From positions 62,560,001-62,624,000 of the forward strand of contig OZ076409.1 in assembly GCA_964187785.1 (NCBI GenBank): a DNA stretch of 64,000 nt. The letters are read 5' to 3'. Below the pieces are notes generated by a model, which saw only the letters and a program-made list of their open reading frames with translations, had not been told where the DNA came from and did no database searches. The position numbers were made by a program, and so were the translations under genes. Of this stretch, positions 6,953 to 64,000 are shown piece after piece. The stretch is from Amphiscolops sp. MND2022 (taxonomy: Eukaryota). Each line of letters starts with the position of its first letter. The first letter of the stretch is position 1.

Positions 6953-7157
6953 TGTTGTATTCTATGAACTAGACTTGTAATATAAGAGTTTGTAAGAAAC
7001 AATGTTTTCTCTAGCACAAAGTTTAGTGTAATGAAAGCTGAATAATCTAGAGAACTATATAGTTGTTAGTAAACAACAATAACAAAGATAACTAAAAATA
7101 GCAACGGATTGTTTATCAACAGTTAATCTAAATTTGTCTGTTGTTCATTATTCTTCA
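6953..7157 (-). repeat. 3' LTR of element A
   Basis: Direct repeat of 12780-12984 with TG..CA ends. Confidence 0.95.
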
Positions 7158-10100: not shown

Positions 10101-11691
10101 GTTTTATTAGAGGTTCTAGTGCTTGGTGGTCCGTCAATAATTTGACGGGTTTGCCGTAAATATATAGTCGGAAATGTTCTAAACCCCAGACTACCGCTAA
10201 TAGTTCGAGCTCGTTAATTGCGTATTTTTTTTCTGTATCCGATAGAAATCTGCTTGCGAATGCTATCGGTTTTAAGTCGCCGTTGTTTTGTTCTTGCCAG
10301 AGGGTTGCGCCCAATCCCTTTGTACTGGCATCGGTTGTGAGTGTATTCGGTCGAGCGGAACTGTAGTGAGCGAGACACGGTATTTCCGTGATTTTTTGCT
10401 TTAATTGGTTGAATGCTTCGGAGTGTTCCGTTGACCAGTTCCAGTTGTTTTTCTTCTTTAACAACTGTCTCAATAGATCCGTTTGTGCTGACAGGTTTTC
10501 GATATATTTCGAGAGGTATTGAATTGCCCCTAGAAATGATTTCAATTCCTTTTCGTTTTTTGGTTCTTTTAATTCTTGTATCGCTTTTAGTTTATCTTGT
10601 AACGGTCTGATACCGTTTTGGTCAATTTTGTGACCTACCCACTCTATTTCGGTTTTGTAAAATTCTGTTTTGTTTTCGCTCAGTCTATATCCTGCGTTTT
10701 CTAATTTTGTTAGTACCTCAATTAACTCACGTGTATGTTGTTCTTTTGTTCCTTTTGTGACGACTAATATGTCATCTAACCACGCCGGATGTTTGTTCTC
10801 CAGTGTTTGGTCTATCTTTTCTTGAAATATGGTCGGTATGTCCGCCAGGCCGTAGAATCCCTTCAGGAATCTGTAGTATCCGGTGAAATTGCCTCCGGTT
10901 ATTGCAAATATACACAGATCCATTGCGTGTTTTGATAGCTGCATTTGTCCGTAGGCGTAGTCCAAGTCGAATTTGGATATCCATATTTGGTCGGGTGCTC
11001 CGTCTGCTATTTTTCTGGATATTCGTGAGATGAGTTCCTCCATATTCGGCATTTGTGCTTTCCGTTTCACGGTTATTTCATTTAGTTTCCGTGAATCTAA
11101 AGCAATTTTTACCGATTTATCTTTTTTCACGGTTATCACTGCCGGACTGACGAAACAATTTTCGTTGATATTTGTTGCCTTCTCGATATGTCCATTTTTC
11201 TTCAGCTTTTCAATTTCTTTACCGACTGCGGGTTGTAGATGTATTGGTATCGGACGACCTTTTTGTTGTATTAGCTTGGCGTCCGGTTTTAATTCGATGT
11301 CTACTTCTATTCCTTTTATTGTTTTGTTTTCGTGGAACAGTTTTTTGAATTTTCTCTTCAACTCGGTTATGTCCGGGTCTTCTTTTACATTCTGGATCTT
11401 CAGGTTAGTCTCCTCCATTTCTAGCTTTATCCCCAGGTGTTTCATCCAATCTAGTCCAAGTAATGGATTCGTTTTTTTCGTAGTTATCAGTAGTTCTAGC
11501 TTTTTTGTTTCCCCGTTGATTTCAACGTTAGCTATTGTTTTTCCTTCGAATTGAATTTTGTTGTTGTTTACATCTCTGTATTCAGAATGTAGTGGCTTCA
11601 TTGGTGTTATTTGGTTAAACATTTGTTTTGGAATCAGAGTGACCGGTGATCCGCTGTCTATAATGAATTTGATTGGACGGTTATTAACCAA
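7123..11691 (-). pseudogene. pol: Pol of element A (protease, RT, RNase H, long spacer, integrase, long C-terminal tail); frameshifts near 8490 and 7500
   Basis: IIDSGS (PR), WLDDIL (RT), TDASTKGLGA / NELELLAV (RH), H..GHP..C..C and IQLDF/TDKA (IN). The integrase continues as GLVERGVRTLK in ORF 7467..8465. Confidence 0.92.
7158..7170 (-). other. Polypurine tract of element A
   Basis: GTAGAGGGGGAAA on the minus strand abutting the 3' LTR. Confidence 0.85.
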
Positions 11692-12731
11692 TGCCGTTTT
11701 TGTGATAAATAGCTGACCGTCACTGGCTATTTGTTTTGTTGAATGGATTGTTTTCGTAATAAGGTGTATTTTATTTGGTGTCCATTCGTCTTCTTCTGCG
11801 CTTGTTGCTTCTGATTCCGGATGAATGTGTTTTATCTTTCGGTCCGTTCTCTGTTTTGTACGGCAGAATTTTGCGTAGTGGCCAATTTTTCCGCAGTTTA
11901 GGCACTTTTTTGTTTTTGCTGGGCAGTCGTGATGTTTATTCCAGTTTGGTGCTCCGCATCTAATGCAGTCGACTACTCTGACTTTATTTGGTTTGTTTCG
12001 TTCCGGTTTTTGGTAGCTTCTTTTTTTTCGACGTGTTTTATTTTTGTTTCTTCTTCCGTATCCCGAGATTCATTCATTTTTTCGTACATGTATTCGTGGA
12101 TTGTGTCAGTTATTGCTTCTACCGACATGTCCCCTTTCTTTATTTTCTTTTTTAGGTCATTGTCTCCCGTGGTTTTCCCGATTACTGAAAGAAATTTTGA
12201 TGCCAGCAGTTCTGCCGCTGTTATTTCTTCAAATTCGCAGTTTTTTTCGATTTCGAGTATTCTTTTCCATGTTTCTGCTGCGGATTCTCCGGGTTCCCGC
12301 TTTAAATTGAAGAAATCAGCTCTACTATGGTGTTTATTCCGTTCCGGAATAAAGTGTAGTCTGAATAGTGCGTAGAGACGGTATAATGGTAGAGAATTCG
12401 GTTCTCTTTCTCTTACCGTCTTTGTCATTTCGGTGAGTGCTGCTTGTCCGACCGCCCAGATGAAAACGTCTTTTATTTCGTCTTCGAGTTGGTCTCTGAA
12501 TTGGGGAAGCACTTCTTTGGAGTTGGTCATCTTTGATAAATCTATTTCCCGTGTCATTTTGATATATTGGGTGAATTTTCTCCACCAGAGCTTTGCACTG
12601 GTGTGATCGGTTTTTTCTAAGATCGGAATGGGCAACTTTTGTATTGTTGTCCGTTCTCCCGATCTCGTTGTTGTATTGTTTGGGAGTGAATGGCTGCTTG
12701 CTTCTCCCGCGTTGTCTGGTTCGTCTTCCAT
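11692..12731 (-). CDS. gag: Gag of element A; zinc knuckles lie in the -1 frame after an A8 run near 12021-12028
   Basis: ORF 11973..12731 follows the PBS. CIRCGAPNWNKHHDC and CLNCGKIGHYAKFC are in the pol frame at about 11870-11970. Confidence 0.88.
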
Positions 12732-12761
12732 TTTTGCAGTTTCTTTTTTTTCTGTAGGTTC

Positions 12762-12779
12762 AGATTGCTGACTGCGCCA
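12762..12779 (-). other. Primer-binding site of element A (tRNA-Ser-like)
   Basis: TGGCGCAGTC directly after the 5' LTR; complementary to the ...GACTGCGCCA 3' end of animal tRNA-Ser. Confidence 0.75.
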
Positions 12780-12984
12780 TGTTGTATTCTATGAACTAGA
12801 CTTGTAATATAAGAGTTTTTAAGAAACAATGTTTTCTCTAGCACAAAGTTTAGTGTAATGAAAGCTGAATAATCTAGAGAACTATATAGTTGTTAGTAAA
12901 CAACAATAACAAAGATAACTAAAAATAGCAACGGATTGTTTATCAACAGTTAATCTAAATTTGTCTGTTGTTCATTATTCTTCA
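12780..12984 (-). repeat. 5' LTR of element A
   Basis: Direct repeat of 6953-7157. Confidence 0.95.
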
Positions 12985-13899: not shown

Positions 13900-15178
13900 T
13901 CCGAAGATAAAACTAAACTAAATAGAAACATTCGCCATGATTGATTGACGCTCTCCGATCACGCAGATACCGAGCAAAAAACCAGACACAAATTTTGAGG
14001 CAAATCAAATATAAAGTTTAGATGTGACGAAAAATCAAATGCCATTTGACAAATGGCACTCAAAAGAGGAACAGAAATTGAACATCACTATCACAGAAGA
14101 AAATCTACAACAGCAGAAGCCAATGTTGGAACTTTCGATTCCCAAAATAATTTTCGGCTATGCCTATGTGCAATTAAATAAAAGTAACAAAGAAGTGCCC
14201 GGAAACACTGCTTATTTGCAGTAGTTGGAATGTTACAAAAAGTTGACAAAACACTAAACTTCCATAAGACAAGAAGATCAATCAATAGAGACCAAAAAGA
14301 AATCGAACGGGTACTTACGAGACTGCAAATACCGGTTACCGTAGAAGCAAATTGAAGAAATATGTCTTGGCCAAAAATGACAAATCCAAAATAAAACCTA
14401 TTGAAGAAAAAAGAGAATCAGTAACAAAACTCAACAACCTCCCGAAAAACCACAAAGATCTCAAGTAATTCCTAGGGACATTCCAACACCTCTAAATATG
14501 TGAGAAACATTTTCGATGACAGGTAAAATGCAGAAAAATCGATAAAGACAATGAAAAATGGAATGGTCGCAAGAACGTCAAAAAGAGTTGGAAGCATTGG
14601 ATGAAAATATGAAAACATCCCAAAGTTACCGAGTTTCTCTGAATACGCAAAGAATTTTGTCACAACTGACACCATCACAAACGGGCTAGGAGCGGTACTA
14701 TGGCACGAACAAAAGGCGAAAAGCGACAGTCTATAGTTTTTGCTAGCCGTTTGAACGACGCAGAACGAAAATACACGATAAACAAACTAGAGTCATTTGT
14801 CTGAGCATGCAGTCTCGAACATGTCGGATTCATTGTAAATGGGATGGAGTAATGCTGAAAACAAACCACACAGCGCTACAACTACCCCTGCGGAAGATCC
14901 GTGCTCACAAACAATACAGCGCTTGTTTATCACGTTGGAACGACCGCTTGTCGCACTTCGACGTATCTGTACGAAATTGCACCAGAAAAAAAACTATTTT
15001 ACCATATTACCATGGCAAAAACCCGGTTGCAAAGTCAAATCCAGAATGTGAATACGCAGAAGAATAGACAGCAAACTGCATGAAATAATTCAAAACTGAA
15101 CTGGGAAAACACAATTCGATGGAATAAATAACTAATCACACGGAAAACGAATTCAATAAATTTGTCAATCAAGCCAAA
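13900..15178 (+). pseudogene. Highly decayed Mag-like pol relic; insertion target of element B
   Basis: RNase H remnants TTDTITNGLGAVLW, FASRL, AERKYTINKLE, KQYSACLSRWNDRLSHFD and EYAEE match element A Pol; many stops; left boundary approximate. Confidence 0.65.
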
Positions 15179-16707
15179 TGTCCCAGGCGGCCGCCTGTGA
15201 TGGGAATCTGTATTCAATAAGCCACAGCTACCAAAGAGCCCTGCCGAATACCCTCCCAATAAATTAAAACTTGTTCGGAAAGTAATATTTCGATTGCTTA
15301 GTATTAGTTGATTTTATACTCAATGTAAAATGTTAGATGCTGTTACTATTCATATGTATATTAATGTACGGTGAATTTGAAATTGGACACCAAGGCGTAC
15401 AGGCAAAGGAAACGAGTTCAAATGTTTTCTTGCCTGTCGCCTTGGACAAAGCATCCAATTTGAAATCAACCAATCAGAGAGCAGTATTTAGTTATGTACA
15501 TGTACAGTTGCTATTAAACCAATATGGCGGTATTAGTACTTGCGCCGTACTTGGCTTTCATTCTCACGGCTTGGAAATAAATAAAGGACAGCGTGTCCAC
15601 TTTGACACAAGCCGACAATGCTGTTATTTTAAATAGTTGAAAGCTGCTCTATTAGTTGCTATAATAAGACAGCGTGGATACTTGACCATTCCTGTACCTT
15701 GAAAGTACAGAAATTAAAATCTTGATGCTTACTATTTTAGATACATTCTAGCTAATATGGCTAGAAAAGTCATGTTATAAAACATGATACATGAATTGTT
15801 GCTTTTACATGTTAATATATGTAATTCTTGGCTGTTATTGTCATTGTAGCCATGGAGGCCGTATTAATATTCAGTCACCGCTAGCCCTTTGAAGTATATA
15901 TTTAGTGTGTTGATGACATCACGGTGCTATTTTTAGCCGTTATGTTCTAAAAATAGATGCATGACACCCTGAAATTAGATCATCACCCCCGCCCTAACTA
16001 TAAATACCCAGGACTAGCTGTCCTCAGGGACACAATTTGACAAGCGATATTATTATCAGTTTCACCTTTTTGATAATACTCAGATACAAATTATTAACCG
16101 TTCAGTTGTTAATAACCGATTACTAGAATAATTTAAATATTACCTCTAGTACAATCATTTATGCCTTCCACAAGAAGACAGAAAGCCAAGGCAAGAAAGT
16201 CTAGAGAAATGGACATGATGTCCGATATAGACAACTTGGACGTAATGTTAGGTAATGGGAGTGAAAATCCTATTGAGAGAGAATTAGCAGATGCAATCGA
16301 ACAGTCCTCTTTCCAGGGAGACTACGAAGGAAATGAGTACCAAAGGAACAATTATAACTTTGTACAGGAAAATGAGCCAATGAGGCACAATGAAGTTAGA
16401 CAGTCCTTTGAAACTTTTACAAATGAATTCAACCTCAGATTGTCTCAAGAAATGGATTCCATGATGTCCATGGTCCATAACCAGATAAACAGGGCAATTA
16501 GCACTGCTATATCAGAAAGGGTGATCCCAGAGATCCAAAACATTGTGAGTTCAATGTCATCTTCAGGAAATAGGGACACTGAGGCCAGTATGTCCCCAGG
16601 TAGTCAAGAAAATAGGGAAAGTTCATCCGGGTTGAAAACTAAAATAACGAAAAAGGACTCACGGTCCGTAGGTGATTTGAGAGACACCACGGGGCGTGGC
16701 TCTTACA
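15179..16707 (+). repeat. 5' LTR of element B
   Basis: Direct repeat of 29254-30782, followed immediately by a TGG PBS. Confidence 0.95.
15999..16006 (+). promoter_or_regulatory. TATA box of the element B LTR promoter
   Basis: TATAAATA about 160 bp before the gag ATG; same motif at the equivalent place in element C (56151-56158). Confidence 0.7.
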
Positions 16708-16719
16708 TGGTGACAGGAG
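16708..16719 (+). other. Primer-binding site of element B (tRNA-Leu-like), inside the gag coding sequence
   Basis: TGGTGACAGGAG directly after the LTR CA; resembles the Leu-type TGGTGTCAGRAG. Confidence 0.65.
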
Positions 16720-17829
16720 CTAACAACAGACATTTCCTGAATTTCTCACTGGACGAATCCACTCAATCCCAAACCTGGCGAGACAACAATCAAACCACAA
16801 TGTCTCTCTGGACACCACTCTGCCAGCCCCAGAACAAGAGGTTCCTGAGACACCTCAGGACCCCTTGAACAGATTGGCCGACGTCCTGGTCAACTTGCAA
16901 AATAAGCCACAAACGATGACCATCCGACCAGTCCAAACCACACCAATGACATTTGACGGGAAAAGTGAAAAATTTGAACTCTTTGAAGACCTATTCCACA
17001 CGATGATCAAAATGCAACCGGCCATGACAGAGCAAATGAAAATTAACCATTTTCATTCCTTGCTTAGGAAAGGGGCCCTGCAGACTTTCAGGAATATAAA
17101 CTCAATTAACCGTCAAACGCTCGAGGACGTGCTGGTCATATTCCGGAGGAAATACGTAAAACCGGAATCCCAAGCAACGGCAAAACACAAATGGCATCGA
17201 CTAATTTTCGACCCGAATACCATGAAATTGCCGGATTTCTTGGAAGAACTGAACCAGGGGGCAGAAAAAGCATTTGGCGAGAATGCGAAAAGCATGATTG
17301 ACAGTTTATTGTACTCAAAACTGCCTCCAAAATTAAAACGATCTGTCAATATGGCCCGCCTAGAGAACGGGACATATGAAGAAATCGTTGCTCATCTAGA
17401 ACGAGAACTTGAACTTAATGCATTGGAAGAATCTGATGACTTACCAATGGCCACTATGGCCTCTGCGTCCACCAGTAACAGCAACCTGCTGTCCAATGGC
17501 ATAAACACAAACAAGGACGCACAATGCTCCTATTGCAAAGCCACAGGCCACTTCTATAAGAACTGCCCTAAATTGAAAAAGAAAAAGGAATTGGAGGACA
17601 AAAATGGCAAAAAGCCCCAACGCCCTACATACCCAGAATGCCCTACTTGCGGAAAGAAAAATCACCCCGTTGAGAGATGCTGGAAAGGGGCTGGAGCACA
17701 TTTACGCCCCAAAAGGACACGTCCTGAAGATAAGGCTGATGACACCTCTGGAGATGAAAAATCATCCAAGAAGTCAACTAGCCCCGAAACCACATCTTCA
17801 AGCCATTCATCTTCTCGAAAAACCGATTC

Positions 17830-17839
17830 AAAAAACTAA
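17830..17839 (+). promoter_or_regulatory. -1 ribosomal frameshift site A_AAA_AAC followed by the gag stop
   Basis: The -1 frame is open into pol; identical heptamer and stop in element C. Confidence 0.85.
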
Positions 17840-20800
17840 TTTCGCCACGACTCCAAGTTTCCAACCAGATGTCAGTGCGACAATATGTCATATCTGACCC
17901 ACCAAACATTATTTATAAACAAACTCAAAACGATACCACAGGAATTCCATCGACTGTCTGGCAGCAGCAAATGGCCAACGCCCGCATGGAAACTCAACAT
18001 ATTATCCATAGCGACCACCCATACTTATATAGACGAACAAGTTACGACAACGACTCGGAAACTCACTTTCGCCCCTTACAAACTGTCGAAGATTATAACC
18101 CTCAATACTATGACCCCGAGTATGGCAAAGACCCGTACTGGGACGAAGAACTATATGACAAAACCAATTTACAATTTCGAAACGAAGATTACCCTCCAAC
18201 TGACGACGAGGACGACCCAGACATTGAAGACAACACACTGTCTCGGGCCCTCATTGATCCTTGGCAGCCAAATTTTGATGCAATAATACAAGGAGTAGAC
18301 GCCACTCAACAACAGGAAGGCCACAAAGCCTCTAACAGACTTTTAGATGAAACGGCCTTCCTAGATCTCTTAGTGGCCAAGGAATGAGAGCCGTCCTACG
18401 TTCCCCTTTCAACAAACCTTGGGCTCAAATTTAAAAGACGAATGCTCTATTTCCCAATGGATTTTGGAGAGTTAACCCTAGACGGCCTAATCGACACTGG
18501 AGCCCACTCCAGTGCAATACCGGAAGCAGACCTTAGAAAGATACGCCTATTGGCCCCCCAGTCGATAGTAAAAGAAGGCCCTGCTCCATCTTTTCAAATA
18601 ATGGTCGCAAATGGTGATTTAGAAAACACAAAGAGCACAGTTGAACTAAAATTTGAGGTGGGAGACATAGAATTTCATGAAATCTTCATTGTAATGGAAA
18701 AACTGTCTAGCCCCATAATTGGACTGATGTTCCTGCAGAGGAACCACACCGTCTTGGACATGCGCCAAGGTATACTCAATTTCCCTTACTTCTCGATGCA
18801 ATTAAAAACGGCCGACCACAAGTATTCAAATGTAATCGAGCCAATTCTCAACCCTGAAGGCATCACCATTCCTCCGAATGACCTTGCAGTCATCTCTATA
18901 CAGTCCCAGATCTATGCCGAAAATGCAGTCACGGGGATATTACAACCCAGTGACCTCCTCCATGAAGAAGGTGACGTTACATTTTGCGCCGCCATAGTCA
19001 CGTTGCATGAAGGGACTATGAGGATACACGTTAACAATTTTACTGACCACCCCTACACACTCAAAAAGGGGCTACATATCGCAAATTTCTCAGTGATGAC
19101 TCCTGAACAGATGAAACATGTCAGGCCAATAGACCCAGTGTCCATCTGGCATTTACTAAACGAAAATGAAGAAGACGCTATCTACTATATCAGTAGCCTC
19201 CTTAAAGCTAACCGAAATAACGACCAGTATGAACAATATTGGTTCCCGACACCTGAGAACCCAGGCGATGAAGCATCACATACGCCAATCCAGCAAAGAA
19301 TCCTCAGGGATTTAAGAAATCTAGAAGAAATAGAAAAACTCAACCCGCAAGACAATGCTGAATCTAGGCAAAAATTCCTCAGCAATTTTGACTGGAAGGA
19401 CTCAATGCTACAACAGCATGAAATCAAACAAATAGAAGCTCTCTTGGTAGAATTTCACGATATCTTCGCCCGCCACAGATTTGACATTGGCGTCAACGAG
19501 GAATTCACGGTCAAATTGACCCCGAAGAATGATTCACCTGCCTATAGCCAGAGCTTACCTACTCCGGTCAACCTCAAAGAGGACATATTGGTCGAACTGG
19601 CTTTGCTTCACAAATACGGTATTATTACAACACTACCATTCTCAAAGTACGCCAGTCCCATATTCGCCCAGAAAAAACCAAATGGCAAGTTAAGATTACT
19701 GGTTGACTTGAGGAAAATCAATAATCTCATATCCGACGATTATATCAACAACAATCACCCAGTCAGCACCTTAACGGATGCCGCGCAGCACATGGCCGGG
19801 AAAAAGCTTTTCTGTAAACTCGATTGTTCGCAAGCCTATCATTGTCTCCCAATAGCTGACCAGAGGTCTATTGAAATGCTTGCTTTCAATTTTGCTAGCA
19901 GGACCTTTGCCTATCGCAGATTGGCGCAAGGCCTCAGCAGAGCCTTATCGGCCTTCTCCAGCTTTATACGAGAGTATTTAGACCGGGTGATCAAAGCAGA
20001 TCAATGCGCCCAATATGTGGACGATATCGGCATTGCGGCCAACGATGCCGAACATCTCATAACAAACCTCAGGGCTACCTTCCAATGTATCAGAGAAGCC
20101 GGACTCAAACTGTCCATGCACAAGTGCCACTTTGGCACTACCGAAATTGATTTTCTTGGGAGAACCATCACCCCTGAGGGTGTCAAACCCCAAAAGGAAA
20201 GAATCACCAACTTCTTGGAAAAGACGAAATTTCCAAAGTCCAAGAAGGCCTTACAGCGTTACCTTGGCTTCCTCAATTACTACAGGAATTATATACCAAG
20301 ACTATCTGAAAAACTCGTTCCCTTCTTCCAATTGCTCAAAAAGGACGAGAAGGTACTAGTGACGCAAGAGTTGGTTGAACAATTTAATGAAATCAACCGA
20401 GACTTAGATAGATGTAGTCAACTGGCGCTGAAACAACCTCTGCCGAACAAACAGCTCGTCCTGATGACCGATGCAAGTTTTACAGCAGCCGGTTACGCCA
20501 TATTGACCGAAGACGACCCAAATCAAAAACACACTTCCGTTAAAAAGTCCTATGCGCCGATTGCATACGGATCAAAAACTTTCACGCCTTCTCAGCTTAA
20601 AATGTCAATATATGCAAAGGAATTCCTAGCTATATATTATGCATTTAAGGAATTTGGACACATTTTCTGGGGAACACCTCAACCTGTGATTATACTCACA
20701 GACAACAAATCGGTCACGAGGTTCTTCCAGACCAAGATCGTTCCACCGCCACTCTGGAATGCTTGTGACTTTGTCATTCAATTCAACTTCATTATAGCTC

Positions 20801-22938
20801 ACATTCCAGGCAAGAATAACACAGCGGCAGATTATCTGTCTCGTATGGAAATGGACCCTACTGAAAAGTTGGTCCTGAAAATACGAGAAGACGTAGATAC
20901 TAGACCGATCGAAGTAAATGTCCAATCAGCCGGCGTGTCAGAAGAAGAACAAATTTTCTTCACCGAGGAGGATAATGAAACAGAAGAACAGATTTGGGAA
21001 CGGAAAAAACAATCCAAAAAGGGACTCATGATCCCTGAGACAATAATCCACATTGACGCCATATCCGAAAATACAATAGAAGAAATTACCAATTTCACTC
21101 AAAAATTGCGACGAACTAATCAGATACTGCTCGAACAGTCTAAAGATCCCATCTTGCTCCAATTAAAAGCAAAAATTCAGAAGGAAGAATACTCTGAAGA
21201 AATCTTGCAACAGGATACTCGGTACAAGTACTACTTGAACAACATGGACCGAATAGTCCTTAAGGACGAAATCGTGACAAGGCAGTACTATGACGAAACT
21301 GGACAGATCAAATACCATCAAATTCTGTTACCGAAACACCTAGTTCAAGAATTATTACAAGCAATACATGGCACGGCACATCGACATCCAGGCATCTCTA
21401 AAATGCTGCAAGAAATTCGCCAAAAGTACTACTACCCAGGAATAGCAAAACTTGTCAAAAAATGGGTAGATGGCTGTGAAATATGTGCCAGAGACAAACG
21501 GGTCCCTAATGCTGTAATTACCCCAGAATTACTGGATTTGCCTGAATGGGACCTTGGTCCAGAAGACGCCATGCAAATTGACCTATTACCAAATTTACCG
21601 ACTAGTGGAGGATACCAAACGGTGATGACGGCAATAGATGTATTCTCAAGATACTTGTTCGCCTACCCGCTAATTGAGGCTACAGCCGCAAATGTGACCA
21701 AGGTGATAATTGATATAATGACGAAGCATTCATATTTGCCGACAACTCTCATCACAGACAAGGGCTCCGCATTTACTTCAACAATTCTAGCAGAAATCAC
21801 CAAAATTCTGGGAATAACACTTAGATGCGCTACTACCAAACATCCGCAAACGATCGGCAAACTTGAGAGGACACACGCCTCTTTAAAAACCAACCTGAAG
21901 ATGGCCTCAGGGGAATATCGTCGTCAATGGCACAAATATTTACCATTAGCAGTGCTCAACTATAACACTACTTATCACGCTAGTATTGGTTGTGAGCCTA
22001 GCAAAGTCTTCCATGGCCGAATCCCCTACAATGTCCTTGATCATAAATTAGGAAATAATCCTAATAAAAATTTCCTACCGACAACTGAATTTGCAGAAGA
22101 ATTACAGCAGAGGACGCAAATCCTCATTGATCAGACAAAAAAGAATATTATGCAGTCGTATTTAAAGTACAAGGAGTACTACGACCGCAAGGCCAAAGCG
22201 GCTCCGCTACAAGAGAAAGACTACTGTTTTGTTCTTCAACCGAAAGCGGATAGTCAAGGCTCTAAAATACCATTTAGGGACTTCCGATGGATTGGTTCCT
22301 TTGTCGTCCAAAAAACCTTACCAAATAACAATTATATAGTGCGTCGTTTAAATACGAATAAAACGCAGATCTTGCACCGGATCAGGCTCAAAAAATTTGT
22401 TCCAAACACCCCATTAGAGGACAAATTTAAAGAAGAGAAATTACAGCCTGATGAGGAGATAGTAATACCGCAAGATGATTTGTATACCATCTCATGGGAA
22501 GCGGACTTTGAGTACGAGCTATTCGAGCCGAAGACAAATGACTGGCCACACACGGCCACGCGTCTGCCACAGGACGCCGCGAACGGAGAAGTCGACTATT
22601 ACGTCACCGAGAATGAAAGCAGCAGCGTAAACGAAAGCGAGCGCAGCAGCGAAAGAAGAAATGACAATGACGTCAGCGAGAACGAAATAAGGCCGAGATC
22701 GGCCACCAGCCGTGATGCGCCGTCCCCTCTGCATGAATCGCCTAGTAGGACGGAAAATGAAAATGACGTCACTAATGAATTAAATGATGACGGAAACATT
22801 CCAAAAAGGGCCGCAGATATTACCGTGCCCGGAATATCGGAAAACGAAAGAAATGAGGAAAATTCTAGTCCTAGAGGAGGGAAATATAATCGTCGACCTA
22901 ACCCTACCCCCAACTTTACTGATGAATACAGATATTAG
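17830..22938 (+). pseudogene. pol: Pol of element B (N-terminal extension, PR, dUTPase-like fold, RT, RH, IN); single in-frame TGA at 18385-18387
   Basis: LIDTGA, YVDDI, TDASF, H..AHRHPG..CEIC, QIDL/TDKG/KLER. The TGA aligns with a Gly codon in element C. Confidence 0.95.
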
Positions 22939-23198
22939 CCAGATATGTAAATTAATGTCCCAACCGCCACTCAGACTGACAAATGACCTTTTTTACTTGG
23001 GACTACTCTGACTCTAATATATATACAAAGAAACAGAAAACGTGGACTCAACGTCCACAAATACAAAACGAGTCATGAAATACTGATTTAGCAATATAAA
23101 ATAGACTGCGAAGAAATAAACAATTTCAGAAACTGCAAGTGAAACAGAAAACTATAAATACACAGCAACAACTAAGAACAAATGTACACTATGTACAT

Positions 23199-26100
23199 TT
23201 AATGTTTACTAGAACCCTGCTGCAGCTCTTTAACGGTCTTCTCTATTTCCAAAGAAGGGATATTGCCAAAGTGGGCTAACTTGGAGGACTTCCCAGGAGA
23301 ACAGAACGGATTACCCACTTCACTTGCTTCAGAAGGCAAATCGAAATGGGCCTTCTTGACCCCCTCAGTATCAGTCCCGTGAATTTTGTGGGCTGCCAGA
23401 AGTTCCTTATGTATGGAGATCTGCCCAAATGAATCCACATGGGACCAAGGGTCCCCTGAGACATTGCCAGACGAGAATTTGGCATTCAAAAGATGGTAGC
23501 GCGTGAGAGCTGCTTCAGTAACACTGTAGGGAATGGCTCCGGGGACATGAGCTAAATATGACTGTGCCGGAAACAAAACATCTGATAGACGACAAAACGA
23601 ATCAGAGGAGTCCATATTGTGAAATTTGATGGCCGGCAACGGAACGCTAGCCTCAGTAAGACACATGCAGCTGAGGCGGAAAAGATGGAATAGGTGTGGA
23701 CGGGCGGTCAATGCAGGCATCCCGATCAGGAAGGCAGTCACATCGTGCACCAGCTCAGGGGAATTCATCAAGCTAGGGCAGGCATTGCGGAAATCGTCGA
23801 TGAATCCCACGTACTCATCACGGTAATCGGACTCAGAGTCCGCAGACACCCACCAGCTGGAACGTGTCAAACAACGAGGTAAAACAGAATAGGGCTTGCT
23901 CCATGGGCTGCGTTGACAGCACAGTCAAATCAAAAGCAGCCATCCCTCTCACAATATGGGCTGTAAGGCGAATATCGCCCAGGAGCGATTCGAGGATGTT
24001 GACGATGAAGGAGCGGGCCTGGCTAGCGAACATTTCCTTCATGTTTTTGGCTAGTTTCTCGAACGCCTGCGCTTGGTCCGACTTGGAGCTCAACTCCTTC
24101 TTGGCCTTCTGTTGACAAGCTTGGTCAATGTCTGTTTTTAACTTCAGTCGCAACAAGAAGTCCCGGCTGGAAAGTTGCCGTACCCCGTCTAATTGCAGTT
24201 GCAAAAGCCCAGACCAATCAGTGTCCGCGGGGGTGTGCTTGGGTAACAGGGCCCGTTGACATAATCTCCGTATGTATCGGCAGAGCTCTCCAAAGGTGAA
24301 AAATCCTGAGTCCCGTCGCTTGATGAGACTCCGTTCGAAGCACTTGGTGTCTAAACGGTCAAAAGACCCATTAGGCATACTATAGCCCAGTGCCGATTAA
24401 GGCCTATGGTTTTTGTTTGACAAACATGATGGAATGTGGGATATGTAAACGATCAAAAATTGTCATCAAAACTTGAAGGGAATATGGAAACAGAACTAAC
24501 AATCGCGGACTAGCCGTCCGAAGAATTCAACCTTCAGAGGAAACAGGTCGTCAGACAGAATGGTCCATTCCAAGCTCTGGGGCTGAAGCAAAACACGTAC
24601 CACTCTATAGAGCCGAAATGAAGACAAATAGGATCAATGTACTTTGCAGGACGATTACAAACTGGCAGGGAACTGCAAAAATGGAGCTGGGAGATACTAA
24701 CTTTTCCTTTGACTCCTTGCATGGCGTAGGATGGGGCTCTGCTGGTGAGGTAATCCAGAATGGCTTTCCAGTGCTGTATTAGCTCCGAGCAAATTGCAGG
24801 AATGTTACGTAGCTCAAAGGTGGAAGCTTCTATTGCCTATAATGGCATACAAACCATAAGGACCTATTTGAGGGTGAAAATTATACAGGGAGCAAAAGGT
24901 AGCCTACCTTTGTCAGCTCAGGCGATTCCAACGTCCAGGGCTCTGTCAAAATGCCGCTGAAGAACACGATCAAATATCGCAATTGTGAGAAAAAATCCAT
25001 TGGCCCAAAGACACTTCCTCCTTCTTTGTACATCAAGGCCTGCAGAGACAGCACGTCGAACCGAAATGGGTACTGGACCCCGCGTGAGAATAAACCACAA
25101 TTGTCCAAGGTCCGAACCAGAGAAGCGGGACAACCGGACACACTCACGAGGCCAGGCTTGAAAGAGATGACTGAAAGGAGTCGAGACAGTCCCGTAATGA
25201 AGTTGGAGGGAAACCCGGCAACCAAAGGACATCGAAACAACGGGACCCGTACCAAGGTGTTCTCTTTCCAAAAACGGACTGACATAGTTTGATTTCTTCC
25301 GGTTGCTTCAACTTCAAGGGCATACATGTCGTTCAGAGCAATGTGGTGAGACAGATCCTCAATGGCACAGGTAAAGATGTGATGAGATATCACCTAAACC
25401 AAAATGAAAGATCTTGTTAGCTATGGAAAAGCAGAACCTCATTTCAACCACCAAAAGAAAGAGACTTACGGTCATTGTGGCTGAACTCCAATCAAAAGGG
25501 GAGAACTGCTCTTTGTGGTTCATGTATTCCCCTACTTGGGACCACAGTGTTTGTAGCAGGGAGATGTTGCCATCGTAGGGAACAAAACTCCCAACGAGAG
25601 CTATTTGAACGCTGGCACGCTGGTCCTCTGTAGTCTGCTGTCCTTCCGAATTGGCCAAATATTCATCATAAAAGGGGTACCTCTCCCCCACGTCGACGAG
25701 TGGTGCATTTTCAAAGAGGGGTTTCTCTCGCTCAAGTTCCAAAGGAGTCAAGATTCGTCCGTCTTTTCCTCGGACCTGATGTCGAGTGATGCCAGTCACT
25801 TTATCTGTCACGCTTAAGTGTTCAAAGCGCCATCTCTGGTCTTTCCTCAGATGAGCCTCGCCTTGATAATGTCTGATGATTTCCCGCGCCCCTTTTGTCT
25901 TGATGGAAACATTGGCCTTACAAATTTGGCAATAGAACTTGTGTTGATTGTGGGAAGGATCCAAAGGCCCAGTCACGAAAGTTTTAGTCCATTTGATTCC
26001 TTTGAAGTAGGACTCCTTCATAACTTTCCCTGTTCGTCCGGACACCTTCTGGCGTTTTCGTGCTGGTTTAGTTGGGGTCTTGTTTCCTGTGGATTTGGGA

Positions 26101-27200
26101 AATAATGCGGCCAATGGGGCATAATCCTCGGCGCTGTACCCACTACCAGGACTTGTTGGCAACATTGGAGTAGCAGTTCTGGTCGGTTGAGATTGTGGTC
26201 TGAAGCTAGGCGAAGTTGGCGAGTAATTGTGCTCGATATGGAAATCTAAACTATCTAGAGCGTCATCTGAGTTGAGGGCACCACTTGTATAACTGCCGCT
26301 TGCACAGTCTTCTCCGCTGCTTTCTCCTTCAGAGCTAGATTGTTGTCCAGGGCCTGGAGTGCCGGCACGCCTTACATGGCGACAACGCTCTTTTGAGATG
26401 ACTTTTCCGTCAGCGGCTTGAAGGAGCAGGGATTTCATCAAATGGAATGATGAGAGGAGTGACTCGTCCGAGATGGTGCGGAGGACCGTATGCATCTGCC
26501 CTTCACTCAGGGCAATGACAGGTTGGCTAACGGGAATATTGATGGGTTTATTCTCCGTGAAGCATTTGCGTAAAGCTGCTCGCCCGGTGATGGAAAGTTG
26601 CCTGGGTGTAGCGGTAGCTTTGCTTGTGCTGGGTGGTTCATCTAGCAAATCGTCGCTGCTTGAATTCCCCCTCTTTGTTCCAGCGTCATCTCCTGAGGAT
26701 GGCGAGGGGACTGTGACGAAAATGTTGTTGGCGCCTTGTAGAGTAGTACCACTAACCCCTGATCCGTCAAGCAATTCCCCGAACTCGCTCGTGTCGGTAG
26801 AGTTTGGGCCCTGAACGAAGTGTCCAGGGGTATCCTCTAAATCCTCTCCTCCCAAATTGGTCTCTTCTACTGCATCTGTTGTCAGGGGAGGGCTGATCTC
26901 CATGAGGTCGGAAACTGACTCTTTTTGGGACAGTACATTATTTAGCTCGGCTTCAATTTGGTCAGCACTATTGGGAAGTGACTCGGAGGACTCGTTGTCT
27001 CTCTGGACAATGGTAGCCACGGTCCGCTCAGCGTAAGCACTCAGGCTTTCGGCATTGGACCCACTTGAATTCGACGAGGGAGATCGTCCAGTAGGGGCAT
27101 TTTCATTTGGAACAGCTTCTTTGGGGATTTCTGTCGCTGTTTGATTTTCGGTTGTTTCCTTGGTTGGGTTTCCAGGAGTTGTATCTTCATTGGACGACAT
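23199..27200 (-). CDS. Antisense 5-exon accessory gene (about 1190 aa) derived from a hAT transposase lacking catalytic residues; one frameshift near 23855
   Basis: Exons 27200-25470, 25393-24908, 24836-24702, 24582-24501 and 24350-23199 are joined in frame by four GT-AG introns. BED-like finger FYCQICK..RHYQGEAH; homologous C-terminus in element C. Confidence 0.8.
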
Positions 27201-28508
27201 GTCTAAATAGAAACAAATGAAGGTTAGCGGTGAACTTCCTGTATGAACCAATATTCCGCGTATGAAAGTCTTCCGGAAGCAGACTACGTTGAACACTTGT
27301 GAACACTTGTGTTATTTGGACAGGAAGTACGTGAATGGAATGAGAGCTCTGATCAAGCATTAATTTCAATTCAAAAAATATATTGGAACAAAAGGAAACT
27401 CAAGATCAACCGACTTACTTGGATTTTGATGTAGGAAGATGTTGAAGTTGTGTTGCGTGCAGATGGAAGCGGACGGGATGGCAGGGAGGACAGCTCTGGA
27501 CAAGTAGTTTGGCGATTGATGTCCACGAAGACACGGTGGCCAATTAAAATCTATGACGTTGGAAAACGCTGAGAAATTGGATTTCCTTGAGAGGAAGAAG
27601 AAGAAGGGGCAAAGAAGGATTGTGTTGGCTGAGAATGGCCTGAAGAGGGGCTAGAGGTCGTCTTTCCGAGGACAATCCAAAAATCCCACAAATGAGAAGA
27701 AAACGTAAAGGCAAATGCAACTAAATACGACTTGTGGACTAAAGCTAACTATGGATTAAATACGATGAAGAGTAAATGTGGTGGATAAATACAAGTAATA
27801 CAAAGGAGAAAAGAGTAATACAAATGGAATTGAGATGTAAAAGAATTTGAAGAGAATTGGCGATGTGACAATACGTCAAAGTTGGAGTTCGTGGCTATAC
27901 AGTTTGGTGTCAAATTTACAATTATGTACAATTCAAGTTATTATGTGGATATAGTCTGCCAGCAATATCTACATTATTTCATCTTATTTTGAAGAAAATT
28001 TCGTCATTCTACGAATTATTTCATGATTTTACCATTTCTTTATTTATTTTCAAGGTCATTTTATAATGTTCCTCATATGGATTCATGGCCTTGAAAACCC
28101 ATTTTGAGTTGAGAGAGAAATTACTGCTTTCCTATTGGCTATCTAGAACTAAGGCGGACGGCATGGCCTTCAGCTATATATTCACCCACTTGAAATTTTC
28201 AAGTAGTTCATGAGTGTTAATAAACACTCAAAGATGCTATTGATGGCTACTCGCCGCTCAGGAGAGCGGTAAAGATTATTAGGTGTCAACAAACGGGTGT
28301 CGGCTTGTCATCAAAAACATTGTGGCGTTGTTATTGAAGAATTTCCAAGGAGAGAGACGAGAAACCCGGGAAATCCACCAAACAAAGTCTGAAGGAAAAT
28401 CCGCTTGAAAATATTTCATTCAGACTTTTCTCTACTGCAAGAACTAGTTGGCTCTTGGAAATTGTTACTTTCAAAATTGCGAAGAAAATAATAAAAGAAA
28501 GATTTGAA

Positions 28509-29342
28509 ATGGACCAGCAAGAGTTATTTCCGGAAAGCACCTTATTTCCTATGGACTTCCAAGGCGCGGCACCGGGGGATGGTATAATTTACATCTCGAG
28601 CGATGAATCAATGGAGTGTCTAAGTACGAGTTCGGTGGAAGACCTGGACGACTTGTCAGAACCGGAAGACGACGAAGTCGCACTTTTGGCCCGATGTATA
28701 GAGAGGCAGATGGAAATTCCATCTACAAGCAAAGCAATCCCGGTTCCTGATAACGACACTGTTAAATACAAGAGGAAATGGACACCCAGGCCAATGCCCA
28801 CTCCAGAACCTACATTCAATGCTGGTTATTTTGACTTGGGCATGGGAAGGGGGCCAGTCCCGAGAGACAGCCGCCAGAAGAACAATCACCCGATTAATGT
28901 GTGCAGACAGTTGATACCGATGGTAGATACCCCGCTTTCGCCGCCACCGCAGGACAAATATCCAATGTACGACGAGCAAAACCCGGTGGGACAAACAGTA
29001 CTACTCAGCGAACAAGGGATGCAGAATTACTCCCATTTCAAAATGGCAGATGGAAGTCTTACACCGTACATAACAGGATGTACAGATTGCCTTGTGTGCG
29101 GCAAATCGGTGGAGCAGATTCAGGATGAGGCTGTGATTGACTATCTTCACAAGACGGCAGTTTACGGGGAACTACCAGAGCAATTCAACGCTAGGAGACT
29201 CGCTTTCCTGGAGGGAATGAAAGTCGGCTCTTTTATGTTGATTCCAGGGGGAGTGTCCCAGGCGGCCGCCTGTGATGGGAATCTGTATTCAATAAGCCAC
29301 AGCTACCAAAGAGCCCTGCCGAATACCCTCCCAATAAATTAA
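28509..29342 (+). CDS. Accessory ORF (277 aa from first ATG), acidic/Pro-rich with CTDCLVC cluster; reads through the PPT into the 3' LTR
   Basis: Open frame; the last 29 codons are conserved with synonymous changes and the same stop position in the element C LTR. Confidence 0.8.
   Translation: MDQQELFPESTLFPMDFQGAAPGDGIIYISSDESMECLSTSSVEDLDDLSEPEDDEVALLARCIERQMEIPSTSKAIPVPDNDTVKYKRKWTPRPMPTPEPTFNAGYFDLGMGRGPVPRDSRQKNNHPINVCRQLIPMVDTPLSPPPQDKYPMYDEQNPVGQTVLLSEQGMQNYSHFKMADGSLTPYITGCTDCLVCGKSVEQIQDEAVIDYLHKTAVYGELPEQFNARRLAFLEGMKVGSFMLIPGGVSQAAACDGNLYSISHSYQRALPNTLPIN
29246..29253 (+). other. Polypurine tract of element B
   Basis: AGGGGGAG abutting the TG of the 3' LTR. Confidence 0.8.
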
Positions 29343-30782
29343 AACTTGTTCGGAAAGTAATATTTCGATTGCTTAGTATTAGTTGATTTTATACTCAATG
29401 TAAAATGTTAGATGCTGTTACTATTCATATGTATATTAATGTACGGTGAATTTGAAATTGGACACCAAGGCGTACAGGCAAAGGAAACGAGTTCAAATGT
29501 TTTCTTGCCTGTCGCCTTGGACAAAGCATCCAATTTGAAATCAACCAATCAGAGAGCAGTATTTAGTTATGTACATGTACAGTTGCTATTAAACCAATGT
29601 GGCGGTATTAGTACTTGCGCCGTACTTGGCTTTCATTCTCACGGCTTGGAAATAAATAAAGGACAGCGTGTCCACTTTGACACAAGCCGACAATGCTGTT
29701 ATTTTAAATAGTTGAAAGCTGCTCTATTAGTTGCTATAATAAGACAGCGTGGATACTTGACCATTCCTGTACCTTGAAAGTACAGAAATTAAAATCTTGA
29801 TGCTTACTATTTTAGATACATTCTAGCTAATATGGCTAGAAAAGTCATGTTATAAAACATGATACATGAATTGTTGCTTTTACATGTTAATATATGTAAT
29901 TCTTGGCTGTTATTGTCATTGTAGCCATGGAGGCCGTATTAATATTCAGTCACCGCTAGCCCTTTGAAGTATATATTTAGTGTGTTGATGACATCACGGT
30001 GCTATTTTTAGCCGTTATGTTCTAAAAATAGATGCATGACACCCTGAAATTAGATCATCACCCCCGCCCTAACTATAAATACCCAGGACTAGCTGTCCTC
30101 AGGGACACAATTTGACAAGCGATATTATTATCAGTTTCACCTTTTTGATAATACTCAGATACAAATTATTAACCGTTCAGTTGTTAATAACCGATTACTA
30201 GAATAATTTAAATATTACCTCTAGTACAATCATTTATGCCTTCCACAAGAAGACAGAAAGCCAAGGCAAGAAAGTCTAGAGAAATGGACATGATGTCCGA
30301 TATAGACAACTTGGACGTAATGTTAGGTAATGGGAGTGAAAATCCTATTGAGAAAGAATTAGCAGATGCAATCGAACAGTCCTCTTTCCAGGGAGACTAC
30401 GAAGGAATTGAGTACCAAAGGAACAATTATAACGTTGTACAGGAAAATGAGCCAATGAGGCACGATGAAGTTAGACAGTCCTTCGAAACTTTTACAAATG
30501 AATTCAACCTCAGATTGTCTCAAGAAATGGATTCCATGATGTCCATGGTCCATAACCAGATAAACAGGGCAATTAGCACTGCTATATCAGAAAGGGTGAT
30601 CCCGGAGATCCAAAACATTGTGAGTTCAATGTCATCTTCAGGAAATAGGGACACTGAGGCCAGTATGTCCCCAGGTAGTCAAGAAAATAGGGAAAGTTCA
30701 TCCGGGTTGAAAACTAAAATAACGAAAAAGGACTCACGGTCCGTAGGTGATTTGAGAGACACCACGGGGCGTGGCTCTTACA
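29254..30782 (+). repeat. 3' LTR of element B
   Basis: Direct repeat of 15179-16707. Confidence 0.95.
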
Positions 30783-32516
30783 CCAAACTACGGACAATTG
30801 GACTGCATAATTAACACAATCATCTATCACGTTGAAAATCGAAGTAACAGTGACGAACAAAGTGACGTAACAAGCAACCGAAAGGTTCACGTTTCATTGT
30901 GATTGAGCTCAATCTAACGCATGCTTTGTCTATGATGGAGCCGGAGAACCCGTCGATTTTCAGTTGATCTTTAAATGAGTTAAAAAGTTTGTGGAAAACA
31001 AAGGGAACATGATTTAGTCCGATAACACGTTCTGACTCCGATATCAAGATTTTCTTCATTGAAAAAAAAACAATTTGGACAACTTTCAGTTGAAAAGTTG
31101 CCAATTGAAAAAGAAAAATTTGCCTTTGAAGTGCGTGAAGAAAAATTTTAGTTCACACTTGACACCCATTTGTGGGTGAGCAATGTGCTTTGACGCAAGC
31201 CATTTGCTCCAAATTTTCTCCAGGTAAGTTATACACCGTTGGGAACTGTCACTCAGCGATGACGCATCGAACTCTTCGCAATTTCCGTCTTCTTCCCCGG
31301 GTAAAGTAACATCGGAGTCACTGTCGTTCATTCTTCACAGAGTTTTTGAGTTTCACCCAGATTACAAACTTAAAAAACTCAAAGTCGACGGTATTTTATA
31401 TCACAGAACAACAAACGCATAAATGAAGCACGTTTTTTGAAGTCTGTAGGAAATGAAGGAGTATTCTGGGAAAGTAAGCTTCTAGTTTCTGGCTCATTGT
31501 TTGCCAAAAAGAAACTGGTTTAAACGGAATGGTTTTAACGGAATGGGAAATTGTTTCCAATTGAAACAATGTCTGGGGAATTCAAACTTTCTCAAGCAAG
31601 GTTTCATATATGGTCTCAAAAATTGTTTTAAACTGACGTTATTGTTATATGACTTGGCGAGGTTTGACTTTAAGAGAAGAAGGGAGCTTTACAGTTTTAA
31701 TTGGAAAAGTGAAAATTCTTCAACAAAGAATTTCATCTTGCAAAATAGTCATGGCATCAAGGTCTACTAGTTGACTGCTTTCGGTAGAAAGATCGTTATA
31801 TTTTCATTAGAAAGTAATCTGGGTACCTTTTATTTTTTTCGCGCAATTGGAAAAATGACTCCTTGTGATGTAATGATAAACAACACAGCAATAAAAAGTA
31901 CTAATTTAGTTAGAATGACTTATTAAACCCTTTTGGCGGTGTAACCAAAAGAAAAGTCACTGAAAATGTGAACAAACTGTCACTGCTTGTTATTGACTTT
32001 TGAAAACTTTGTCAACCACGTTTTTCGGTTGTTAACTCTTGATCACTGAAGAGTAAACATGTCAGATATACAAATGAGGTTGTCTTTTTTGAAATTTCTA
32101 GAAGATGTTTCAGCAAAAAGTCAATTTTTCTATAACTGTTCATATTCGATGTTCATTTTTAAATGTTTAAGATAATAATGTGATTCTAACGATGAACAAT
32201 TTATTGTTACTTTTTGCATTGCTTCCTGGAAAGAACTGCCCGAACATAAAATTAACTTAGAAAATAAGATAAAACTAGATCAGACCAAAGGGTCTTTTGT
32301 ATATTGATGCATTGGGATGTTTTTCATGAAATTTTGTGAATTATCTGGAATTGATTTTAGCAATCAGCAAAGTCGCAACTGAGTTTTTTCTATTCAATTC
32401 ATGTTGAAATGACGATCTCGAGAGTCCATCTTTGGTATTATTCCAATTTCTAACATTTTTAGTTGGAGCTTTAATAAAAGAAACGTGACTATTAAAGTGG
32501 CACTTCGTCGTGTTTT

Positions 32517-46169: not shown

Positions 46170-46704
46170 AAACAAGACGGGAACGTCCCAAGTCGGCGCC
46201 ATATCTTAGGCTCAAAAATATTCAAGGAACAACTATTGTAAATATTTGGAAAAAAAAATTTTCAAAAAAATTATTTTTGAAATTTTTTTTCGAAAAAAAG
46301 TATTTTGTAAGTCGCAAAATGCCGAAAAACTCAAAAAAAGGCCATTCAGGCTCATTCAACGTTTTCTACAAACCGAAAATTTCAAAAAAAATGCAAGGGG
46401 GTACCCTTTGATAAATTTCAAAAATTTTCGAAAAAAGTCGCATAGTGGCGAAAAAAACCCAAAGGGGGGGGCACTTTGGTCTCACCTGTACTTTTGGAAG
46501 CATTAAAAAATTTATGGTTTAGTGCGAGAATCGAACCCACGCACTCCGGCTGGGTCGAAGATGGAAGATGAACAAATATGAAAGATGAACAAATTGTAAG
46601 AAAAGTGGACCACTCAGAGTGAGATTGTCAACTGAAAAAAACAAAAAAAAACTACTCACTGTAAGAGTCGGGCTTTTTTCCTTAAGGGAAAAGGCGCCGA
46701 CTAA
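46170..46704 (+). mobile_element. Helentron/DINE-like repeat inserted between gag and protease of element D
   Basis: Same termini as 41078-41630; interrupts the relic coding sequence. Confidence 0.65.
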
Positions 46705-63472: not shown

Positions 63473-64000
63473 TTAGCTCTTAGAACCACCAGCAGACGAT
63501 TCACCAAGGACAGACGAAGCTCTACCCCGGGAACAACCCTTTTCCATCCGTCTCCGCTTACTATCACTGGGTGGCCTCACAGCAGGAGCATCAGGCACAG
63601 AAGAAGTATCAGCAAAAGTGGGACTTCTAAAATAGAATTCTGACCCGGAGAGAACAGAGCGATAAGAGGTGACGAGAGTCTTGTAAATTGCTGAACGGCC
63701 GAAGCTGTCTACAAAGGTCCACGGGTCGTAATCGGCAGCGAAGGCAGTCTGTCCAAACATCGAAGACAATTCGAAGAATTTCTCGAGACGAGACTCGGAA
63801 CAGCAGGCAACCAGAGAATCAGGCACTGTTGACAGATAACTTTGACAAGGCAAGATGACGTCCGCTAAACGAGACTGAAGCCCCTTTGTGTCAATCTTAC
63901 CCAAAGAAACAGGAGGATACTCGGGACTCACAGAAGTGATGCAGAGGCAACTCAGCTTGAACAGATAACAAAGATGCTCATGCGTGTGGAGAAACTCCAA
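63473..64000 (-). CDS. C-terminal part of the antisense hAT-derived accessory gene of element C
   Basis: HLCYLFKLSCLC, RLADVILPCQSYL and DPWTFVDSFG match B HLFHLFRLSCMC, RLSDVLFPAQSYL and DPWSHVDSFG. Confidence 0.85.
   Translation of the reverse strand: MEFLHTHEHLCYLFKLSCLCITSVSPEYPPVSLGKIDTKGLQSRLADVILPCQSYLSTVPDSLVACCSESRLEKFFELSSMFGQTAFAADYDPWTFVDSFGRSAIYKTLVTSYRSVLSGSEFYFRSPTFADTSSVPDAPAVRPPSDSKRRRMEKGCSRGRASSVLGESSAGGSKS

Follow-up and report, generated by a model that had tools for sequence, protein, structure and literature searches.

The 64,000-nucleotide stretch of the Amphiscolops sp. MND2022 genome considered here (the window; contig OZ076409.1, positions 62,560,001 to 62,624,000 of the forward strand) contains a Ty3/Gypsy long terminal repeat (LTR) retrotransposon, and on the minus strand of this element, between pol and the 3' LTR, lies an intron-containing gene related to hAT DNA transposases. 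It is highly probable that this antisense gene began as an ancestral hAT5-like DNA transposon that ended up in antisense orientation in a Gypsy element, in the interval from pol to the 3' LTR, lost its terminal inverted repeats (TIRs) and catalytic residues, and was then fixed as an accessory gene of a sub-lineage that now has about 1,900 copies. The gene would be transcribed as its own spliced mRNA from the integrated DNA. Together with a motif cluster in its first intron, it makes up a single module that passes from element to element by recombination.

Exon 1 (25470..27202, minus strand, like all the exons and introns below), with its ATG at 27200, encodes an acidic Ser/Thr/Pro-rich arm at aa 1-200 (35 D/E versus 10 K/R), a conserved block at aa 200-290, a linker, a basic patch, a zinc-finger-like domain and a region that aligns to the hAT pre-catalytic helices. 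The basic patch, KPARKRQK (26046..26069, aa 378-385), resembles a nuclear localization signal (NLS) and may function as one. The finger (25851..25991) is BED-like and of the C2H2 type (W404...C424, C427, H444, H450); its metal ligands are invariant in 15 of 15 aligned copies, and the ligands with their flanks are the most conserved part of the protein. Both the patch and the finger had been proposed in an initial annotation of this DNA, and both are present in the translation. Exon 2 (24908..25393) encodes a predicted RNase H-like core (helix, b1-b2-b3, helix, b4, helix) with a Glu (25309-25307) at the position of the first catalytic Asp and a Ser (25138-25136) at that of the second. Exons 3 (24702..24836) and 4 (24501..24582) are short, and exon 5 (23199..24350) holds the putative hAT insertion-domain and C-terminal region. 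The four introns between them, at 25394..25469, 24837..24907, 24583..24701 and 24351..24500 (the last in phase 1), lie where the initial annotation had placed them, all with GT...AG ends. There is also a fifth intron, in the 5' untranslated region (UTR; 27203..27418), with a GT donor at 27418, a branch-like CTAAC and an AG two bases upstream of the ATG. The proposed in-frame joining of these pieces into about 1190 aa applies to sister copies, in which the last exon is one open frame and the product is about 1,196 aa, but not to the window copy, where a frameshift near 23,850 in the last exon ends the spliced frame after 983 aa. Likewise, the hAT-like blocks originally quoted are present in the translation, but one of them, PHLFHLFRL, lies in another frame of the window copy. 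Exon-5 frames of about 400 aa are found in most of 150 scored matches. A comparison of 20 loci gave no conserved AATAAA that could serve the antisense mRNA; only 2 of them have a site like that of the window.

The evidence for a hAT origin is a collinear profile match to intact transposases, with negative controls. The search for a donor went through a short motif of another hAT type that matched four genome loci. One of these, L048 (166-1604), is an internally deleted hAT element with 14-nt TIRs (12/14) and a 5-bp target-site duplication (TSD), the latter a mark of the hAT5 group according to the accessible part of PMC12730594. L048 also carries GAAATCAGGGAA-type subterminal repeats, and its catalytic motif has only 4 genome matches. 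With L048, 59 transposases were retrieved, and the 41 of near full length were aligned (alignment A6); D231, D297, C325/H328 and E663 are invariant among them. A6 matches Ac-type hATs at E 5e-6, and hAT labels are sparse, being attached to 2 of the 59. The A6/L048 family thus appears to be hAT5-like, with the TSD and TIR evidence coming from one element. When the spliced alignment of 20 copies of the antisense gene (without three frameshifted copies, and with four stops treated as X) is used as a query profile, it matches the 41 intact transposases with a probability of 96% and E 1e-9. The 289 matched columns reach from the end of exon 2 across exons 3-5. The reversed profile reaches E 0.33, ten shuffles E 0.08-0.73, and an Ac-type profile E 0.13. 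Taken separately, exon 5 (E 1e-7) and the finger (E 3e-5) match A6, and exon 2 alone does not do so significantly (E 0.14). In a hAT profile search, all 20 copies score 12.8-49.1 bits and reversed copies at most -1.3. A tryptophan in an RW motif is aligned to an invariant W by both alignment programs, in an uncertain register. Judged by sequence comparison, the antisense gene is a descendant of a hAT5-like transposase. The five Ac-type hATs of this genome give no detectable match.

Comparison of folds with Hermes transposase, which had been suggested as a check, gives a divided answer. The exon-2 model (predicted local distance difference test score, pLDDT, 61) matches RNase H-like folds, Hermes among them: for Hermes, Foldseek gives a probability of 0.99, E 0.013 and the best query TM-score (0.36), and the model superimposes on Hermes residues 153-263 with Z 5.5 and a root-mean-square deviation of 3.8 over 97 residues. 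However, Hermes ties with retroviral integrases and Pelota (Z 5.5-6.2), and so the search identifies exon 2 as RNase H-like rather than specifically as hAT. The exon-5 model is helical (pLDDT 70), and fold searches gave no clear structural match for it. Pfam has no family for any exon, and the finger does not match zf-BED itself. Sequence searches of the PDB had no significant hit, whether with exon 5, with exon 2 or with the donor alignment; the best ESM Atlas hit, 0.81 to TBC domains, is at chance level and was not usable; a word-index search of exon 5 against longer proteins gave nothing; and a finger search returned only family members. A search for PF14291 gave no match, and one C-terminal hAT motif had 0 matches.

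The protein has lost the catalytic residues of its presumed ancestor, as the initial annotation had proposed, although the first position is better described as replaced by an invariant residue than as simply lost. The first Asp, D231, present in 41 of 41 A6 transposases, is Glu in all 20 antisense copies. At the second, D297, a global HH alignment places an invariant Ser and MAFFT a gap, in a region of low alignment confidence, and the column of the final Glu, E663, is mostly Ser/Thr, with no Glu among its four commonest residues. The ExxFS motif occurs in 0 of 150 homologs from outside, and CxxH is not recognisable in the antisense protein. The two invariant Glu in strand 1 (E27 and E29 of exon 2), several invariant Asp/Glu in exon 5 and the uncertain alignment around the second Asp could be taken to mean that the protein is still an enzyme, a nuclease or strand-transfer protein of non-canonical type that uses the invariant Glu and other acids. 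This is very unlikely, given that neither alignment has an acid at the second position, that ExxFS and CxxH are missing as described and that no TIRs are available as a substrate. The protein as predicted from sequence is dead as a transposase.

Transposon ends are also missing, again in agreement with the initial annotation: no TIRs or TSD are left around the gene. No hAT TIR words occur in the 22 stretches, no hAT 11-mer subterminal words were found in the elements, and positions 22939-29300 of the window contain no inverted repeat above 28 nt/83%. The 8-bp TSD that had originally been looked for was, however, the wrong test, because a hAT5-like donor makes a 5-bp TSD.

The introns were compared in 23 of 33 gene copies; the ten omitted are one deleted copy and nine relatives that are close or carry indels. 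Among these 23, whose proteins are as little as ~40% identical, 86 of 89 introns are GT-AG and occupy the same codon positions. Intron lengths range from 66 to 493 nt, only 25 of the 89 are divisible by three, and intron interiors diverge more than exons in nearly all of six copy pairs. Each of five of the nine omitted relatives had one junction displaced or missing. By this comparison, the introns on the antisense strand are real, as first proposed. Retrotransposition leaves the introns of an antisense gene in place, since the RNA that is packaged as the genome is the opposite strand. In L033, L037 and L041, which sit on two separate branches of the protein tree, intron 3 is lost exactly, exon joined to exon. 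Such precise absence is as expected for cDNA-mediated loss, and it suggests that the antisense mRNA is spliced and sometimes reverse transcribed. The match of the hAT profile across the predicted junctions further supports splicing.

The gene is a family-wide component rather than an accident of one locus. A degenerate exon-5 motif pattern has 1,913 matches in the 1.07-Gb genome (control, 0). Contig 1 has 34 gene motifs in its first 21.8 Mb; for 25 of them, the opposite strand carries a reverse transcriptase (RT) motif at a distance of 2.8-5.0 kb, and for none does the same strand (random mean, 0.19). All of 12 loci chosen for motif diversity have a pol C-terminus downstream, in opposite orientation. 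Within the window, a second, diverged Gypsy element carries an antisense gene at about 40% protein identity; its 3' end lies at 63473..64000 (minus strand), and it continues in L029. Tandem arrays of the element, with a spacing of ~14.1 kb, are present at 14.57-14.62 Mb of contig C9 and 3.37-3.40 Mb of contig C5. In a representative library, 818 exon-5 homologs, 20-100% identical to the gene copies, are found on contigs of up to 1.2 Mb; their hosts may be the same or related.

Purifying selection acts on the protein: among copies, the ratio of nonsynonymous to synonymous substitution rates (omega, or dN/dS), proposed initially as a check, is well below 1. Codon models on 20 diverged copies, in which synonymous sites are saturated, give omega of 0.04, 0.05, 0.06 and 0.06 for the finger region, exon 2, exons 3-4 and exon 5. 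Seven unsaturated pairs of the 190 copy pairs give 0.08-0.21, and groups of 7-9 close copies give 0.17-0.31 for the folded parts and aa 200-385 and 0.63 for aa 1-200. The integrase has an omega of 0.06 overall; two groups of close copies give 0.08 and 0.37. Neutral decay of a merely nested hAT insertion, to which the frameshift of the window copy might point, is refuted by the shared introns, the low omega and the family-wide linkage to RT on the opposite strand. With no TIR or TSD, a position and orientation fixed across lineages that are 40% identical, and splice sites that are conserved while intron interiors diverge, its probability is negligible.

A conserved non-coding motif cluster at 27215..27385 lies within the 5'-UTR intron. 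It consists of TTGATCAG, CTTCCTGT, the palindrome CTTCCGGAAG and AGGAAG, a CTTCC/GGAAG arrangement in which the central 10-mer is a perfect palindrome between an invariant inverted pair. CTTCCTGT, CTTCCGGAAG and AGGAAG do not vary among the 9 aligned copies, which extend to the lineage at 40% identity. The cluster pattern has 1,757 genome matches (control, 0), and the gene motif lies downstream of it in 71 of the 97 listed matches (one duplicate and two beyond the compared range left out). The cluster is present at 23 of 26 RT matches with the gene motif versus 3 of 74 without it. Given that antisense RNAs regulate other retroelements (PMC7264820), and given the palindromic 10-mer with its flanking pair, the transcript or the cluster may itself be the selected unit, either a self-limiting antisense RNA or a dimerisation or packaging signal on the genomic strand, with the protein a repressor or secondary. 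We consider this quite unlikely. A conserved RNA structure for the cluster was rejected, as fold z scores are -1.3 and +0.6, the covariation term is unfavourable, and two-sided change occurs in 1 of 22 pairs; Rfam has no family for the cluster; and selection as strong as that seen at the protein level demands a protein function.

The antisense gene and the cluster swap together against both of their neighbours, pol on one side and ORF3 (a third open reading frame, ORF, on the sense strand) with the LTR on the other. L012 and L025 are 99% identical in integrase and 63% in the antisense protein, and for L011 versus L012 the reverse holds. Among the 12 of 22 loci usable for comparing finger, cluster and ORF3, L014 and L022 are 98% identical in integrase and 93% in ORF3, with 81% in the finger and 77% in the cluster, and L009 and the window copy are 100% identical in the finger and 62% in ORF3. 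In the mosaicism of L009-L028, pol, the antisense module, and ORF3 with U3 recombine as three blocks. Since the module moves independently of both LTR and integrase, neither binding to the cognate LTR nor a tight partnership with integrase is favoured. This bears on the possibility that the protein is an integration cofactor, a dead transposase that, bound to chromosomal sites or to the ends of cDNA, would tether the integration complex of the Gypsy element, import it or protect it. The entire transposase body beyond the finger is under equal purifying selection (the omega values of 0.04-0.06 above), there is a basic NLS-like patch, and hAT bodies grip DNA ends. The free swapping against integrase, however, is not the mark of tight co-evolution, and a protein encoded outside the Gag-Pol polyprotein has no evident route into particles. 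A cofactor role is thus improbable.

The reading that we prefer, with a probability of roughly one half, is that the product of about 1,196 aa works in the nucleus, where it would bind specific DNA sequences and regulate the element family that encodes it. The finger would read a short motif, and the dead transposase body would supply multimerisation and hence avidity; there is a precedent in Hermes, whose BED domains cooperate, within a multimer, in binding short AAGT repeats, as described in the available portion of PMC10368747. The acidic N-terminal arm and the aa 200-290 block might recruit host transcription or chromatin factors. The symmetric CTTCC/GGAAG cluster, nearly restricted to elements that bear the gene, is the best candidate site, and an autoregulatory switch of this kind could keep the locus open (anti-silencing) or tune it. 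More tentatively, and in our view somewhat doubtfully, the dead hAT protein may multimerise on the palindromic cluster of its own intron and open the element against germline silencing, which would explain the expansion of the lineage.

Several observations weigh against such a regulator. About three-quarters of the RT-motif matches of this Gypsy clade (5,741 genome-wide) lack the gene motif, which is present at 25 of 100 of them; on these motif counts, the gene is not essential for the clade. It also follows neither its own 3' LTR nor ORF3, as judged from the swaps, and with no such co-segregation, binding to the cognate LTR becomes the weaker form of the initial annotation's idea. Cluster and finger do co-vary (rho 0.90, 66 pairs), but they are only 1.2 kb apart, and linkage alone predicts as much. 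The GGAA cores of the cluster resemble host ETS sites, so the cluster may simply be a host-driven enhancer of the gene. Finally, a separate mRNA implies a protein that acts in trans, and selection on such a gene among young copies is hard to explain without a bottleneck.

The protein might instead act by contact and read no motif in its own element; its targets, to be blocked or decoyed, would be a silencing factor of the host (piRNA or chromatin machinery) or hAT5 transposases that compete with it. The acidic N-terminus evolves fast (the value of 0.63 in close copies), the exchange of modules resembles accessory-gene shuffling, hAT5-like elements coexist in the genome, and, in the accessible text of PMC13547354, predictions give accessory proteins of transposable elements many host contacts. 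Conservation that is highest at the finger ligands and their flanks, however, suits the reading of DNA; the elements contain no terminal or 11-mer subterminal hAT word; and omega is never above 1. Counter-defence of this type is therefore also unlikely, and a DNA-binding regulator remains the reading that we favour.

The carrier is a complete element (15179-30782, with TG...CA LTRs and a 5-bp TSD) that encloses the antisense gene, as had first been proposed. The 5' LTR (15179..16707, plus strand) is 1529 bp long, with a TATA-like box at 15999, and the 3' LTR (29254..30782) is its direct repeat, with 7 mismatches in 1529 bp; the left copy of the TSD is at 15174..15178, and the same 5 bases stand at 30783-30787. 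A primer-binding site that starts with TGG (16708..16719, plus strand) directly follows the LTR, within the gag frame. gag (16161..17839, plus strand), with DUF1759 and zinc knuckles, starts inside the LTR, which holds its first 182 codons (16161-16707), and reads through the primer-binding site; the second element of the window shows the same layout (56422-56884). Because gag starts inside the LTR, the 3' LTR contains a 200-codon gag-N ORF (30212-30814). pol (17782..22938, plus strand) has the Ty3/Gypsy order of protease, RT, RNase H and integrase, and a weak dUTPase-like signal lies between protease and RT at 18760-19100 (Pfam E 0.14-0.26, below significance). LTRs with TG...CA ends, a TSD within the expected 4-6 bp, a primer-binding site, a polypurine tract and this order of domains together place the carrier in Ty3/Gypsy. 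In the window copy, gag is frameshifted near 16,730 (it is a single frame in the second element) and an in-frame stop at 18385-18387 breaks pol; these breaks, and that in the last antisense exon, may be mutations or assembly errors.

Between the antisense gene and ORF3, which are divergent, lies a conserved non-coding block (27824..28238) that is a candidate promoter region. ORF3 (28509..29342, plus strand) encodes 277 aa with an acidic N-terminus and a CxxCxxC-like motif, and it crosses the polypurine tract into the LTR; a Pfam search gave no family for it. It is present in 20 of 22 long stretches at 26-99% identity, with a fragment in one more, and also at 8747-9547 of L029. A near-invariant SQAAACDG in ORF3 spans the border between polypurine tract and LTR, and ORF3 travels with U3 and swaps independently of the antisense gene. 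Elsewhere in the window, at 6953-12984, the minus strand carries a distinct, compact Gypsy element with 205-bp LTRs that are 99.5% identical, a gag-pol and a 376-aa third ORF at 7467-8597 with no Pfam match. A decayed relative at 46,300-52,300 carries a 2.26-kb tandem duplication. An ORF fragment at 5502-5996 has a weak QRICH1-domain match (E 2e-4); it may be a remnant of a Crypton-type tyrosine-recombinase element.

The nearest relatives in organisation are the antisense genes termed aORF-3R, which are known from Ty3/Gypsy elements such as Retand (TRP28/PF04195 ORFs), maize Grande (gene23), rice RIRE2 and fungal Boty (PMC7264820 and the available part of PMC11963269). The gene described here fits their positional definition, and it shares with them a location between pol and the 3' LTR and family-wide conservation. 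They are considered to have their own promoter and to encode nuclear DNA-binding regulators, features to which, in the gene here, splice-site conservation, the exact intron loss and the basic patch point indirectly. Unlike them, this gene has five introns, a product of ~1,196 aa and a demonstrable origin from a DDE transposase; Pfam searches of it gave no match to PF04195 (TRP28). The word "intron" is absent from PMC11963269. According to PMC7264820, the plant ORFs are dissimilar to other transposable elements, so that a nested-element origin is unsupported, the origin of antisense ORFs is unknown, and spliced antisense transcripts are worth seeking. Thus, what appears to be new, relative to known antisense accessory ORFs, is a traceable class II origin together with five introns, and for one lineage the question of origin has an answer. 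Our literature search found no Gypsy-borne antisense gene derived from a hAT; Repbase Reports, subscription papers and supplements lay outside it. The nearest animal precedent is in bdelloid LTR retrotransposons, whose extra ORFs, captured after pol, were recognised through profile searches (PMC5408684); those ORF3s are GDSL- and DEDDy-like, unlike the antisense gene, and that paper mentions neither "transposase" nor "intron". The retroviral antisense regulator HBZ is likewise encoded next to a 3' LTR, as the same part of PMC11963269 describes, but it is a bZIP protein without transposase ancestry.

In profile alignments, the antisense protein runs collinear with hAT5-like transposases through the BED-like finger, the strands of the RNase H-like core, the helices of the insertion domain and the C-terminal region. 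In contrast to them, it does not retain D-D-E and CxxH, has no TIRs, is carried by a class I element, and has an extra 390-aa N-terminal arm and a new C-terminal motif, DPWxxVDxFG. For Hermes itself (PDB 4D1Q, 8SJD), the exon-2 model aligns, whereas Ac/Hermes-type sequences have no profile match. One practical consequence is that hAT-like gene models in such genomes may belong to Gypsy elements. The family also offers a recognisable DNA-binding domain, a candidate site, ~1,900 variants, module swaps and sister elements without the gene motif.

In its proposed action, the protein can be compared with VANC, an anti-silencing accessory protein of VANDAL that acts through a motif in its own family (PMC6719617 and PMC13547354). 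Both are accessory proteins encoded by transposable elements, and the proposed target of the one here is likewise a motif in which its family is enriched; VANC, however, sits in a DNA transposon, derives from a host MAIN-like protein and is unrelated in sequence. If the anti-silencing reading is true, a class II gene has become an accessory factor of a class I element. An animal transposon would then encode an anti-silencer with sequence specificity, which PMC6719617 gave as undescribed in 2019.

ZBED proteins and ZNF862 are hAT proteins that were domesticated by their hosts. As in those cases, a dead transposase would here be reused as a DNA-binding factor, but the part of the domesticating "host" is played by a second mobile element. 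The domestication of transposases, a familiar event in host genomes, thus appears to occur also between transposon classes.

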